Below are positions 27,108 to 30,763 of a stretch of 64,000 bases of DNA, one piece after another. Made by a program: the position numbers and the translations under genes. The first letter of the stretch is position 1. Each line of letters opens with the position of its first letter. The notes under the pieces were generated by a model. It had not been told where the DNA came from. It searched no databases and was given only the letters and a program-made list of their open reading frames with translations. The stretch comes from a bacterium (GTDB taxonomy: Bacteria; UBA8248): NCBI GenBank assembly GCA_965207065.1, contig OZ242260.1, positions 1,184,001-1,248,000 of the forward strand, given 5' to 3'.

Positions 27108-27656
27108 CTATTCGGCGGGCGCCGTCTCGGCAGGGGTTTCAGGCCGCGTGTCCGCCTCCTGGTTCCTCAAGCCGAACAGCTTGCCCCAGGGTCTGGGGCC
27201 GGTGTAGTTCACCTCTTTCTCCCAGACGTCGTAGAGGCGTTCTTTCTCATAGACGAGGTCTTCCCGGAAATATCCGGGCGTCTCGTACTGGTGGGTATGG
27301 ACGATGGATTTGGGCGTCGTGGGGCACGCCTCCGAGCAAAGCCCGCAGTACATGCAGCGCATGTAGTCGATATAAAACTCCTTGGCGTACATCTCGCGGC
27401 CCTTGCCCGCCGTGACGATGGTGATGCAGTCGACCGGACAGGCCTTCTCGCAGTTCAGGCAGCCGATGCAGAGTTCTTCGCCCGTCTTGAAATCGCGCGT
27501 GAGTCCCAGGAATCCGCGAAAACGCTCGGGCGGCTCCCAGCGCTCCGTCGGGTATTGAAGCGTGACGGGCTTTTTGAACATGTGCCGCAGGGTGGCGGAC
27601 ATGCCCTTCACGATGTCCCAGAGAAAGAACTTCTGAATCCCCCTGGTGAACTCCAT
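27108..27656 (-). CDS. nuoI: NADH-quinone oxidoreductase subunit I (2x[4Fe-4S])
   Basis: VTLQYP, RFRG, CIGCLNCEKACP, CMYCGLCSEACP. Confidence 0.9.
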   Translation of the reverse strand: MEFTRGIQKFFLWDIVKGMSATLRHMFKKPVTLQYPTERWEPPERFRGFLGLTRDFKTGEELCIGCLNCEKACPVDCITIVTAGKGREMYAKEFYIDYMRCMYCGLCSEACPTTPKSIVHTHQYETPGYFREDLVYEKERLYDVWEKEVNYTGPRPWGKLFGLRNQEADTRPETPAETAPAE

Positions 27657-27678
27657 TTCCCTCTCCTCGCCTTGTGCT

Positions 27679-28635
27679 CTAGGAAGCCGCCGCCGCGGCC
27701 TTCTTGGCCTCTTCCTGGGCTTCGAGATATTTCTCGGCCGCCACCGCCGCCGTCGTCGCGTCGCCCGACGCGTTGGTGATCTGGCGGATCAGCTGGCTCC
27801 TGCAGTCACCGGCCACGAACAGGCCCGGAACGTTCGTCTCCATGTTCTGGTCCGTCAAGATGAAGCCTGCGTCGTCTTTATCCACATGATCTTTTATCAA
27901 ATCCGTGTTCGGAATAAAACCGATGAAGACGAACAGGCCCGTGGCGTCGATCTCCTGCGTCTCGTCCGTCTTGACGTTCCTGATGCGCAGCTTCTTCATC
28001 TCCCGGTCGTCGCCCACCACTTCTTCGGGTACGAAATCGGTGATGATCTCCACTTTCGGGTTCTCGCGTATCTTGTCCACCAGGACCGCATGGGCGCGGA
28101 ACTGGTCGCGGCGATGGATGATGTAGACCTTCGTGCCGAACTTCGTGAGGAACTGCCCCTCTTCCACGGCGCTGTTCCCGCCGCCGATTACGGTGATGAC
28201 CTCATCCTGGAAGAACGCGCCGTCGCACAGCGCGCAGTAGCTCACGCCCTTGCCGGCGTATTTCTCCTCGCCCGGAATGCCGAGTTTTTTCGGATAGCCG
28301 CCGGGGGTGTAGATCACCGCTCCGCAGCGGCGCACACCCATGTCGGTCGTAACGAGGAAATCATCCCCGTCCTTTTTCACCTCGGTGACTTCTTCCATCT
28401 CGATCTTGAGGCCGAATTTCATGGCGTGATCGGCGAACTTGGCCGCCAGCTCCTGGCCGCCGACCAGTTCGAAGCCCGGATAGTCTTCTACGTGCTCGGT
28501 GTTGAGAATCTCGCCGCCCGGGGCGAGCTTTTCATAGCAGACCACGTTCAGCTTCGAACGCGCCGTATACAGCCCCGCCGTCAGACCGGCCGGTCCCGCC
28601 CCGATGATGATGATTTCGAAATCACGCTCAGCCAC
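27679..28635 (-). CDS. trxB: Thioredoxin-disulfide reductase
   Basis: IGAGPAGL, GVSYCALCDG, VIGGGNSAVEE, HRRDQFRA, GLFVAGD. Confidence 0.95.
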   Translation of the reverse strand: MAERDFEIIIIGAGPAGLTAGLYTARSKLNVVCYEKLAPGGEILNTEHVEDYPGFELVGGQELAAKFADHAMKFGLKIEMEEVTEVKKDGDDFLVTTDMGVRRCGAVIYTPGGYPKKLGIPGEEKYAGKGVSYCALCDGAFFQDEVITVIGGGNSAVEEGQFLTKFGTKVYIIHRRDQFRAHAVLVDKIRENPKVEIITDFVPEEVVGDDREMKKLRIRNVKTDETQEIDATGLFVFIGFIPNTDLIKDHVDKDDAGFILTDQNMETNVPGLFVAGDCRSQLIRQITNASGDATTAAVAAEKYLEAQEEAKKAAAAAS

Positions 28636-28710
28636 TACGTATCTCCAGAACTAAGGAAAGGCGACGAAAAGAAGTGATACCGATTGATCATGCCCCAAAA
28701 AACCGCGCCG

Positions 28711-28739
28711 ATTCTAGCACCCGCCCCATACCATGCCAA
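28711..28739 (-). promoter_or_regulatory. Sigma70-type promoter for trxB
   Basis: TTGGCA-N17-TAGAAT with extended -10 TGn on the minus strand. Confidence 0.6.
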
Positions 28740-28765
28740 GCCCCCGAGGGGTTTGTCGATAGCCC

Positions 28766-29065
28766 CTATTCCACTGGGGCGAGAACGAAAGCACCGAATT
28801 CCTTCTCCAGGCGAAGCCTTTTTCCGTCGTGCACCACGACGGCGCCGGCGGGGGTATCCTCATCCACCGGGATGCGCACGCCGCAAACAGGGCATGAGAC
28901 CATCTGCACGATACTGAGCGCCTCCGCCCCCTCCGCCCGGCCCAGGCGGAACCTGACCCCCGCTCAGTTCCCGCAATCGATCAGGTCTCGAACCTTCGCG
29001 TCCCACGGGACGGGTATGCGTTGCCCTCAGCCGGGGCAGGGAAGCGTCTTTCGCCTACCGCTCAT
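28766..29065 (-). CDS. Putative double-selenocysteine zinc-ribbon protein (CxxU...CxxU, then CxxC), 99 aa, LysW-like spacing
   Basis: MSGRRKTLPCPGUGQRIPVPWDAKVRDLIDCGNUAGVRFRL...MVSCPVCGVRIPV...LAPVE*; TGA at 29027-29 and 28964-66, each followed by a hairpin; ATG overlaps the upstream stop. Confidence 0.8.
28932..28950 (-). promoter_or_regulatory. SECIS-like hairpin for Sec34
   Basis: TCCGCCTG-GGC-CGGGCGGA; loop starts 21 nt after TGA and begins with G. Confidence 0.65.
28999..29012 (-). promoter_or_regulatory. SECIS-like hairpin for Sec13
   Basis: CGTCC-CGTG-GGACG; loop starts 19 nt after TGA. Confidence 0.6.
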
Positions 29066-29307
29066 GCGGCGAGCCCCAAAAGCGCCTGGAGTTTCGCCCT
29101 GTCGAAGCCGACCACCTTCTCCTCGCCGATGAATATGACGGGCGTGGCCCGCATCTCCGCCCGCTGGAAGAGTTCCTCCAGGGCTTCTTCGTCCTGATCG
29201 ACGAGTTTTTCCGTGTACGCCACGCCATGATGGGAAAGAAACTCTTTCACCGCCTTGCACGGCGCTCAGAACGTGGATGAATAGACCGTCACTTCCTTAT
29301 CGGACAT
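29062..29307 (-). CDS. Selenocysteine-containing glutaredoxin/NrdH-like protein (UxxC), 81 aa
   Basis: MSDKEVTVYSSTFUAPCKAVKEFLSHHGV...RATPVIFIG..VVGFD; TGA at 29266-68 is codon 14; AGGGAG RBS. Confidence 0.9.
29223..29264 (-). promoter_or_regulatory. SECIS-like hairpin for glutaredoxin Sec14
   Basis: Lower stem CGCCGTG/CATGGCG, upper stem GAAAGA-GTT-TCTTTC; loop 23 nt after TGA. Confidence 0.75.
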
Positions 29308-29392
29308 CTCAAGTCTCCCTTGAAGCCGGTGTGCGCCGCCCGGGCTTCTGGGCGCGCTTCATTATCAATATCGTTCCCGGGAGTGTTTTGCG

Positions 29393-30763
29393 CTACTTCG
29401 GCGTGTTCACTCTTTCGAGCAGGGCGGCCAGCTCCTTGATGCGTATCGAATCGAGTCTCGATACAGCGTCCACGATCTCCGCGCGCAAAGAGGCGTCCGT
29501 GCGGGCCTCGCTCAATGCCTCGAACTTCTCGTTCACCGTCGCCCAGCTCATCGGGGTGGAGAAATGCCCCTCCCAGGTGGGCTTGTCCAGCTTGTGGACG
29601 GTCCCGTCCTTGAGCGTGATGGTAATGAGCACGGGAGATTGCGCGGGATACCTGGCCGTCATCTCATCGGAATTGGTCGTGCGTACCTTCTTGAGAAGCG
29701 TCTGCACGTCGTCCGCGCGGATTCTCGCTTCCTCGTACTGGGCGGGAAGCACCTGCTCGTCGATGATGGCCGCCGAGAGCACGTAAGGAAGGCTGTGGTC
29801 CGCCGTCTCCTTGTTCAGCACGTGCTCGCGCGCGCCCGCCTTGCCCTCGCCCATGATGAAATAGGCGCGCTCGTAGATACCGATTTCGACGTCCTCGATG
29901 TCCTCGGGACTGAATCCGTGTTCTCGCTTCATGTCGATGACGCCCTCGATGGCCGTCTGGGAGTGCAGGCCCGCGTTGTAGCGCTTCACGCTGATCTCGA
30001 GCATCTTGCTCAAGGAAGTGTCCGACCAGTCGACATCGAACTCGCCCGTCACGGACTCGAAAACGCCCAGGGGACCCTCTATCAACTTGAGTTGCCCCGT
30101 CACCCCGCGCATGGCGAGAAACGTCGAGTGCACCCCGGTGTGGCAGCCCGCCGCATAGGCGAAGCCCTTCCAGTGGGAGAGTTCGCCCGTGCGCGTGATG
30201 AGCAGGGGGTTCTGCCTCACACCGCTGATCGCAATGGCGTTGGCCGTCTTCTCCGCATCCAGCCCCAGGGCGCGCGAGGCGCCCGCCGCCACGGCGTAGG
30301 CGCCCGCCATGGGCTGGTCGAAGCCTCTTTTCTCATAAGGCGCGCTGTCGCAAAGGCGGCACTGCACCTCATACGAAAGCGCAAGCGCCGTCATGAACTC
30401 CGCGCCGCTCGCGTCGGCGTATTCGGCCGCCGCCATCACGGCGCCCGTGTTGTCGCTCGGGTGCGAGGTGGCGAGCTTCCCCATGAAGCCGTCGTTGAAA
30501 TCAAGATAGCGGATGAGCGAGGTATTATAGAACGCCGCGGCGTCGGGTGCGCTCTTGCCGCCGCCGATGAGCGTGCAATGCGGCGCGCCGCCGAAATCAT
30601 CCGCCTGCTCGCGCAGGTAGCGGACGGGGCCTTCGCCCAGCGAGCCGATGGCGCAGCCGATGGTGTCGACCATGAGGGTCTTCATCTGCGTGCGCATCTC
30701 TTCGGAGAGGTCATCGAAACTGCTGTTCGCGGCGAACGCCGCAATCTGTTCCACAATCGTCAT
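29393..30763 (-). CDS. MmgE/PrpD family protein
   Basis: RYLDFND, SHPSDN, GELSHWKG, KETADHSLPY. Confidence 0.92.
   Translation of the reverse strand: MTIVEQIAAFAANSSFDDLSEEMRTQMKTLMVDTIGCAIGSLGEGPVRYLREQADDFGGAPHCTLIGGGKSAPDAAAFYNTSLIRYLDFNDGFMGKLATSHPSDNTGAVMAAAEYADASGAEFMTALALSYEVQCRLCDSAPYEKRGFDQPMAGAYAVAAGASRALGLDAEKTANAIAISGVRQNPLLITRTGELSHWKGFAYAAGCHTGVHSTFLAMRGVTGQLKLIEGPLGVFESVTGEFDVDWSDTSLSKMLEISVKRYNAGLHSQTAIEGVIDMKREHGFSPEDIEDVEIGIYERAYFIMGEGKAGAREHVLNKETADHSLPYVLSAAIIDEQVLPAQYEEARIRADDVQTLLKKVRTTNSDEMTARYPAQSPVLITITLKDGTVHKLDKPTWEGHFSTPMSWATVNEKFEALSEARTDASLRAEIVDAVSRLDSIRIKELAALLERVNTPK

Follow-up and report, generated by a model that had tools for sequence, protein, structure and literature searches.

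What is encoded in the apparently intergenic gap between the gene for a selenocysteine (Sec)-containing glutaredoxin (Sec-Grx) and that for a thioredoxin reductase (TrxB)? The gap belongs to the window analyzed here, a stretch of 64,000 nucleotides (nt) of bacterial DNA (GTDB lineage Bacteria; UBA8248) that spans positions 1,184,001 to 1,248,000 of contig OZ242260.1 in assembly GCA_965207065.1, and coordinates given below without a locus or genome name refer to this window. If TGA is read as Sec (U), the minus strand of positions 28766..29065, TAG stop included, forms a single open reading frame (ORF) for a protein of 99 residues with two Sec residues and two zinc-ribbon modules in tandem, for which ZnR is used as a working name. 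Comparison of its relatives indicates that ZnR is a genuine selenoprotein gene, with Sec in the protein as the predicted outcome, and the genes around it point tentatively to a role in the handling of soft metals.

The ZnR gene and its in-frame UGA codons

ZnR starts with the ATG at 29065-29063 and ends with the TAG at 28768-28766, both on the minus strand. The first-pass annotation, which named no strand, had described one ORF with the motifs C10-x2-U13 and C31-x2-U34 and a TAG end once TGA is taken as Sec, and this is what the minus strand holds (MSGRRKTLPC10PGU13...DC31GNU34AG...SC58PVC61G...VH79DG...APVE99); a plus-strand reading of 28766-29065 was rejected, its translation being meaningless. 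UGA codon 13 (29027..29029, minus strand) and UGA codon 34 (28964..28966, minus strand) specify the predicted Sec13 and Sec34, which occupy the second position of the first and the second CxxC knuckle, respectively. The ATG overlaps the stop codon of the Sec-Grx gene as ATGA, as had also been noted, with the Grx TGA at 29064-29062.

A six-frame search with stop read-through located the ZnR ORF in 26 of 61 related genomes (E ≤7e-14), and a profile search located it in 30 of the 51 genomes of the phylum, where it has two TGA codons in 9 genomes, one in 9, and only Cys codons in 12. The homologues with Cys and the TGA-aligned copies that the first-pass annotation had proposed to look for therefore exist: in the alignment of the 26 orthologues, U is confined to columns 13 (U in 15, Cys in 11) and 34 (U in 10, Cys in 16) and is otherwise replaced by Cys, and C10, C31, C58, and C61 are invariant. 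The frame is kept across the TGA codons in 18 genomes, without other stops or frameshifts. Judged from this alignment, the placement of TGA in ZnR is far beyond chance. On the gene tree, which is short and weakly supported, the Sec/Cys state changes at least five times at site 13 and at least three times at site 34.

The ratio of nonsynonymous to synonymous substitution rates (dN/dS) was calculated for 12 sequences from the genus of the window, from which one locus (L036) was excluded because of a one-codon deletion. Codons 2-12 have a ratio of 0.40, the stretch between the two TGA codons 0.27, codons 35-54 0.24, and the second module 0.14; since it does not exceed 0.40 in any segment, the whole of ZnR is under purifying selection as a protein. 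The possibility, raised with the original prediction, that the TGA codons are private nonsense mutations is thus very unlikely, as the alignment is full length and the sequence is conserved both between the UGA codons (0.27) and after them (0.14-0.24).

The genome of the window (G000), a single contig of 4.48 Mb that is 96% complete, contains the complete Sec machinery, the presence of which had been left to be checked; all components score above their cut-offs (selA, 579 bits; selB, 386 bits; selD, 334 bits; tRNA-Sec, 75.9 bits). TGA is also used as a stop codon in these loci, namely, at the end of Grx and at the ends of seven ZnR orthologues, and the TGA codons within ZnR are therefore explained by Sec recoding and not by a variant genetic code. 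The selD gene of this genome (G000:C1:543537-544499, minus strand) has one in-frame TGA and is itself a selenoprotein gene. The lineage is probably rich in selenoproteins; Table 2 of BSepDB (PMC13326102) gives 48-54 selenoprotein genes for metagenome-assembled genomes under the label Nitrospinota.

In RNA libraries from three coded studies, contigs carry both TGA codons of ZnR unchanged. One of them (X5, record 10; 28900-29268) bridges the junction of Grx and ZnR, and the other two cover positions 28842-29078 (X11, record 7) and 28890-29050 (X1, record 3). These contigs support the transcription of ZnR weakly, as DNA may have been carried over into the libraries; RNA-library contigs do not cover positions 27600-29400 throughout. 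Near-identical sequence is also present in communities labelled as sponge.

Hairpins 19 and 21 nt downstream of the two UGA codons had been pointed out as candidate Sec insertion sequence (SECIS) elements. Both are present as described, whereas only the one after the second UGA has comparative support as a SECIS. Hairpin 1 (28999..29012, minus strand) has a 5-bp stem and, starting 19 nt past UGA1, a CGUG loop, with a folding free energy (dG) of -5.7 kcal/mol; hairpin 2 (28931..28951, minus strand) has a 9-bp stem and, starting 21 nt past UGA2, a GGC loop. Hairpin 2 is found in all 10 forms with U34, in which its stem has 8-9 bp, its loop reads GGC or GGGCG, and the structure starts 13-14 nt past the codon (dG, -10.1 to -13.4). 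Among the 12 Cys forms from outside the genus of the window it is weak or missing (dG, -8.4 to +1.5); the four Cys forms inside the genus still retain it. A G-C pair closes its loop in the genus and a C-G pair does so in L047, and L030 shows a double synonymous change with one pair kept.

The energetics of both hairpins, on the other hand, count against Sec insertion at these codons. Compared with dinucleotide shuffles, hairpin 1 has a z-score of +1.02, with 174 of 200 shuffles folding as well, and hairpin 2 has a z-score of -0.20, with 78 of 200 folding as well; the folding energy of both is within chance for G+C-rich DNA. Hairpin 1, which is weak, occurs to the same extent in Sec and Cys forms (mean dG, -5.65 with Sec and -4.95 with Cys), and because it is encoded by a conserved V-P-W-D peptide and shared by the Cys forms, it is no more than a candidate SECIS. 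An Rfam scan of positions 28600-29400 (E up to 10) yielded no SECIS family and only three matches at chance level. Behind the Sec codon of Grx, the sequence at 29222-29268 (minus strand) folds clearly better than its shuffles (z-score = -2.35; 4 of 200 fold as well), which the ZnR hairpins do not.

Tandem zinc-ribbon architecture and family status

ZnR consists of two LysW-like ribbons. Module 1 (residues 1-52; 28910..29065, minus strand) carries C10, U13, C31, and U34, and module 2 (residues 53-99; 28769..28909, minus strand) carries C58, C61, and H79 and has no second Cys pair. The suggestion that the second module is related to the first holds: the two halves are 35% identical over 46 residues (E = 7e-6), from which an internal duplication of a LysW-type zinc ribbon follows. 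The resemblance to LysW was likewise recovered, by the Pfam model PF21344 (Zn_ribbon_LysW; 29.2 bits against a cut-off of 27) and, both by profile and by fold, in chain E of PDB entry 3vpb. The profile of 49 ZnR sequences matches this protein, the LysW of Sulfolobus tokodaii, through module 2 (E = 5.5e-6), and the NCBIfam model for LysW/ArgW, NF041070, aligns to residues 9-52 of ZnR with 40.2 bits, below its cut-off of 75. An AlphaFold2 model calculated from the 49-sequence alignment is all-beta (pLDDT = 89, pTM = 0.72), and the sole meaningful Foldseek match of this model is again 3vpb_E (probability = 1.00, target-normalized TM score = 0.75, root mean square deviation = 1.2 Å, 47 columns).

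The four ligand columns of module 1 are invariant or nearly so in the 49 sequences. Going by this pattern, module 1 is a Cys2Sec2 site that becomes Cys3Sec or Cys4 in relatives; we infer a site of metal or of redox nature, as had been suggested, and either fits. The second position of a rubredoxin-type knuckle is the more exposed ligand position. Module 2 has no fourth Cys, and CCG or HCG stands at that place in more distant homologues. In some orthologues, Cys lies beside H79 or replaces it, in the forms ECDG, LCHGG, ELCG, and EHCG (L037/G016, L040/G027, L048/G028, L049, and L050). The ligand set of module 2 thus seems, on these sequences, to drift between Cys2His and Cys3 types.

Each ZnR module aligns with LysW/ArgW (PF21344; 3vpb chain E), with which it shares the small zinc-ribbon fold and CPxC...(C/H)xC ligands. 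ZnR differs from these proteins in its tandem arrangement, in the lack of a conserved acidic tail, in having Sec at two ligands, and in its genomic context, which is that of Grx, TrxB, and mercury (mer)-type genes and not of lysine biosynthesis. Selenium is known as a metal ligand in Ni, Mo, and W enzymes; to our knowledge, selenium ligation has not been shown for a site of the zinc-ribbon or rubredoxin type.

The expectation that gene callers would miss ZnR is confirmed in that they truncate it. The word-indexed protein library holds 10 relatives in all, comprising eight calls of 63 residues and one of 75 residues, which are cut at the TGA codons, and a single full-length one, a Cys form of 96 residues. 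An exhaustive profile search of 1.84 billion representatives gave 90 matches at E ≤1e-3 and 39 at E ≤1e-10. The only name attached to ten full-length library homologues that were looked up is "hypothetical protein," and look-alike clusters in the ESM Atlas are named "LysW-like globular domain-containing." Named members of the first lineage are labelled Nitrospinota; for a second, distant lineage, a phylum is recorded for only a few members of look-alike clusters, and it is Candidatus Methylomirabilota.

No selenoprotein model for ZnR was found in a scan of NCBIfam 20.0 (June 2026) with E up to 1. PF09723, a Pfam model that we take to be related to the FmdB family of TIGR02605, scores 11.8 bits on ZnR versus 34.4. 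The first-pass annotation had not recognized ZnR among the described families, and indeed a review of May 2026, whose Table 1 names 119 prokaryotic selenoprotein families, has none that is LysW-like (PMC13188914). Closest to ZnR in that table come the FmdB family (UxxU), the "dual CXXC motif small protein" of NF041197, and a UxxU metal-binding protein (NF041115). None of the corresponding models matches ZnR, and TIGR02605 and NF041197 are absent from its NCBIfam hits at E up to 1. The FmdB family shares with ZnR a small protein of the zinc-ribbon type and two predicted Sec residues in a CxxC-type knuckle, but its Sec residues form UxxU within a single knuckle, and those of ZnR form CxxU in each of two (PMC13188914, Table 1). 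In the bacterial selenoprotein literature that was searched, including PMC11025550, no Sec-containing ribbon protein was found, although BSepDB (PMC13326102) might list the family. On the basis of these negative catalogue and name searches, ZnR is a new selenoprotein family. It adds to the known selenoproteins a family that is currently annotated as fragments of 63 or 75 residues and that bears two predicted Sec residues at positions which are metal-site ligands in Cys relatives.

Redox partners and mercury-type neighbors

The gene upstream of ZnR (29062..29307, minus strand; Sec codon, 29268-29266) encodes a glutaredoxin of 81 residues with the motif U14-A-P-C17 (FU14APC17), which scores 56.8 bits on Pfam PF00462 and 79 bits on the YruB model, below the cut-off of 88.55. 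Sec-Grx occurs in 43 of the 51 genomes of the phylum, in every one of the 43 with a single in-frame TGA, and wherever ZnR is present (30 genomes), Sec-Grx is the gene immediately upstream. In 19 of the 24 loci from which Grx was extracted, its stop codon overlaps the ZnR start by 4 nt. Downstream, trxB (27679..28635, minus strand) follows at a distance of 130 nt, and its product scores 358.7 bits on TIGR01292 (cut-off, 343.45). In the four genomes without ZnR that were examined, where both flanks were found (L093, L096, L097, and L098), the order is MmgE/PrpD, Sec-Grx, TrxB, and ferredoxin-like protein, with a spacer of ~125-180 nt; since Grx is there directly followed by TrxB, ZnR is an optional insert between a redoxin and its presumed reductase.

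TrxB reduces NrdH-type redoxins. As with the NrdH/YruB-type redoxins and their thioredoxin reductase (TIGR02196 and TIGR02194), the flanking Sec-Grx and TrxB form a two-protein reducing line; the present line differs in that a third small protein lies between the two genes and in that the redoxin is always a selenoprotein (43/43).

A distant all-Cys subfamily, ~35% identical to ZnR, was used to scan metagenomes, which yielded 514 relatives, of which 80 loci were kept. CxxC is found in all three knuckles in 80/80 loci. A Grx homologue lies upstream in 78 of the 80 loci, and the remaining two begin at a contig edge; UxxC is present in Grx in 69 loci, the pattern is unmatched in 6, and there is no room for it in 5. 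Downstream, a MerT-like membrane protein with a CC motif is encoded in 66 of the 70 loci with at least 300 nt of DNA on that side, and the HMA motif GMTUGxU is found in 58 of the 80. As the same gene order occurs in two distant lineages, the module of Sec-Grx, ribbon, MerT-like protein, and HMA(U..U) is conserved across a deep divergence. Judged by gene order, ZnR is evolutionarily inseparable from the UxxC-type Sec-Grx, a partnership previously unremarked.

Among the closer relatives, a motif scan of 14 loci outside the genus of the window detected mer-type motifs in all 14, downstream of ZnR and in its orientation. MerE (CPCH motif) is present in 13 of them, and MerT/MerF (CC, CU, or UU), MerR, and HMA proteins with GMxUPFTU or GMTUGxU are found as well. 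Among representative genes, those for MerE, MerT, MerF, and HMA score above their cut-offs, and MerR scores just below (139.8 versus 150.85 bits). In the family of the window, TrxB comes after the mer-type genes. The sole MerE gene in each of three genomes (G029, G035, and G041) adjoins ZnR; the search that finds these genes found no MerE in G000, G003, or G015. No mer-type motif was detected within 5 kb of ZnR in the 8 loci of the genus of the window (the window and 7 others). MerA above its cut-off (454 bits) was found in none of the six genomes searched for it, G000 and five that bear the cassette; because no MerA passes the cut-off in the cassette genomes, a cytosolic acceptor other than MerA is needed there.

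Cys is also replaced by Sec at metal-ligand positions in the cassette neighbors, as CU or UU in MerT and as U..U in HMA proteins. Two MerT homologues (L066:5584-5931 and L070:5364-5738, both on the plus strand) score 43 and 46 bits, respectively, on the Pfam MerT model, above its cut-off, and the CC pair of their first helix is UU in L066 and CU in L070. CU forms of MerT are mentioned in the preprint of Haft and Gwadz (10.1101/2022.07.06.499078), and no mention of the UU form was seen there; zinc or ribbon proteins have 0 occurrences in it. These MerT selenoproteins (NF045683; same preprint) resemble ZnR in having Sec in place of Cys at metal ligands, and they adjoin it in relatives, but they transport across membranes, and ZnR is soluble and a ribbon. 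MerT-HMA fusions or HMA proteins with the motif GM(T/S)-U-P-F-T-U are encoded at L069:3644-4264 (minus strand) and also in L068, L072, L074, and L064. The two Sec residues of this motif are three residues apart, unlike the usual CxxC spacing, and its score on NF041115 is 69.7 bits against a cut-off of 95.

The role ascribed to NmerA, the N-terminal HMA domain of MerA, is that of a cytosolic soft-metal acceptor. The "UxxU metal-binding (seleno)protein" of NF041115 and NmerA are, like ZnR, small soluble Cys/Sec metal modules, and HMA proteins occur in ZnR cassettes; they differ from ZnR in that they have a ferredoxin-like fold and two ligands, whereas ZnR is a zinc ribbon with four.

Possible roles of ZnR

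What, then, may ZnR do? From its gene context and ligand pattern we infer, with a confidence that falls a little short of even, a cytosolic (seleno)thiolate acceptor or buffer for soft metals that is served by Sec-Grx and TrxB. A soft-metal site that works with Sec-Grx is suggested by the invariant ligands, the Sec residues at the second knuckle positions, the obligatory Grx, the Cys/Sec neighbors of the Hg class, and the lack of MerA. The identity of the bound metal, the direction of its transfer, and the parts assigned to Grx and TrxB are presumed in the following scheme. ZnR, which is translationally coupled to Sec-Grx, itself next to TrxB, would provide a cytosolic site whose (seleno)thiolates bind thiophilic ions of Hg(II)-class metals with high affinity. 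The protein would accept or buffer metal brought in by importers of the MerT/MerE/MerF type, in a role analogous to that of the N-terminal metal-binding domain of MerA, and Sec-Grx, reduced by TrxB and NADPH, would keep the Cys/Sec ligands of ZnR reduced or unload them. In the genus of the window, the transporter genes would have been lost and Grx-ZnR-TrxB alone left.

If this is so, the Sec-Grx and ribbon pair, which in two distant lineages accompanies mercury-type transporters while MerA is missing, would make ZnR a concrete and testable candidate for cytoplasmic handling of thiophilic metals in selenium-rich bacteria, and the existence of both natural Sec and all-Cys versions makes a Sec/Cys comparison straightforward. 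A stronger form of the proposal, which we regard as attractive but doubtful, is that module 1 is the first natural Sec-ligated tetrahedral site (Cys2Sec2) of the rubredoxin/zinc-ribbon type and the cytosolic acceptor of a selenium-based, MerA-less pathway of the Hg(II) class consisting of Sec-Grx, the ribbon, MerT with CU/UU, and HMA with U..U.

Several observations weigh against a role in soft-metal handling. Zinc ribbons are usually structural. No MerE, MerT, or MerA was found above the cut-offs in the genome of the window, for which one nearly complete contig is available (96%), and ZnR cannot therefore serve those transporters there. The forms of ZnR that are richest in Sec sit in this very genus, which is without the mer cassette. 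The MerT-like gene of the distant subfamily falls below the family cut-offs. Adjacency to mer genes could also reflect an insertion hot spot, with mer-type genes in a ZnR-TrxB gap of variable content. Finally, trxB is preceded by a good promoter match, a sigma-70-like element between ZnR and trxB (28711..28739, minus strand; TTGGCA-17-TAGAAT, 10/12 matches, TG before the -10 element) that is a consensus match only and suggests that trxB may be transcribed on its own.

The main alternative is a pure redox relay, in which the CxxU pairs would cycle between selenolate/thiolate and selenenylsulfide and ZnR would be an electron acceptor or donor of Sec-Grx/TrxB, e.g., a small reductase or a scavenger of peroxide or disulfides; metal would then be only a structural or redox-switch ligand, and the mer neighbors would be clients or a coincidence. 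Sec normally marks redox-active sites, and UxxC or CxxU is found in most of the families in Table 1 of PMC13188914. The core of the locus, Sec-Grx and TrxB, stands without ZnR in the four ZnR-less genomes described above, and the genome of the window keeps Grx-ZnR-TrxB without any mer transporter. A relay accordingly fits the genus of the window better than a metal acceptor does, the double-Sec forms being found where mer genes are absent. However, the fold is that of a metal-binding ribbon with four invariant ligand positions and not a thioredoxin fold, no peroxidase or reductase signature was found in ZnR in scans of Pfam and NCBIfam, and a relay does not explain why two distant lineages have conserved the adjacency of ZnR to genes for MerT-like, MerE, and HMA proteins. 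We consider a relay possible but rather unlikely.

That ZnR is a structural zinc ribbon acting as an adaptor or regulator, which would bind Grx, a transporter loop, or nucleic acid and merely tolerate Sec at two Zn ligands, appears improbable. Its weak Pfam similarities to many zinc-ribbon families and the mostly all-Cys orthologues outside the genus are in keeping with such a role, whereas the Cys/Sec switches have occurred repeatedly and independently at exactly two knuckle positions, which, given the cost of Sec insertion, implies a selected chemical role. In addition, the 2026 catalogue that was consulted names no family for which it describes a purely structural use of Sec (PMC13188914). 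A part in the trafficking of selenium to SelD was also considered, to which none of the present evidence relates.

A lack of read-through, in which the TGA codons would terminate translation of a decaying N-terminal remnant and at most a C-terminal ORF of 47 to 63 residues would be made, is judged very improbable. The gene callers do annotate only pieces of 63 and 75 residues, the hairpins are no better than shuffles, and the one at site 1 is weak. Nevertheless, frame and sequence are kept across the TGA codons in 18 genomes, dN/dS is 0.27-0.40 in parts that would otherwise be untranslated, Cys codons occupy the same columns in 12 genomes, and the ZnR start overlaps the Grx stop in a genome with complete Sec machinery.

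Finally, LysW/ArgW-type carriers of amino groups in lysine or arginine biosynthesis give ZnR its best family and structure matches, yet a carrier role is the least credible of all, as LysW carriers have an acidic EDWGE-type C-terminal tail whose terminal Glu bears the substrate and LysX/Z/Y/J/K as pathway enzymes, whereas ZnR stays below the NF041070 cut-off (40.2 versus 75 bits), is a tandem protein, ends in ...EFGAFVLAPVE without an acidic tail (tails vary or extend in relatives), and has no lysine-pathway enzymes among its neighbors within 5 kb, the rest of the genome not having been searched for LysX.

In the window, the neighbors of ZnR within 5 kb encode MmgE/PrpD, a xylose-isomerase-like TIM barrel, Grx, TrxB, a 2x[4Fe-4S] ferredoxin-like protein, and a QRPTase-type enzyme. 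The cassette of L069 contains a gene for a pyridine-nucleotide disulfide oxidoreductase (G030:C16:31576-32892, minus strand), which reaches 301.8 bits with the MerA model (cut-off, 454), is without a C-terminal Cys pair, and might act there as an alternative reductase. In four genomes of the genus of the window (L081, L082, L083, and L085), an insert of ~1 kb lies between ZnR and trxB, ~0.3-1.3 kb downstream of ZnR. This insert has a low third-position G+C content and two ORFs of ~130 and 167 residues to which no function was assigned, and it looks like a mobile two-gene insertion.

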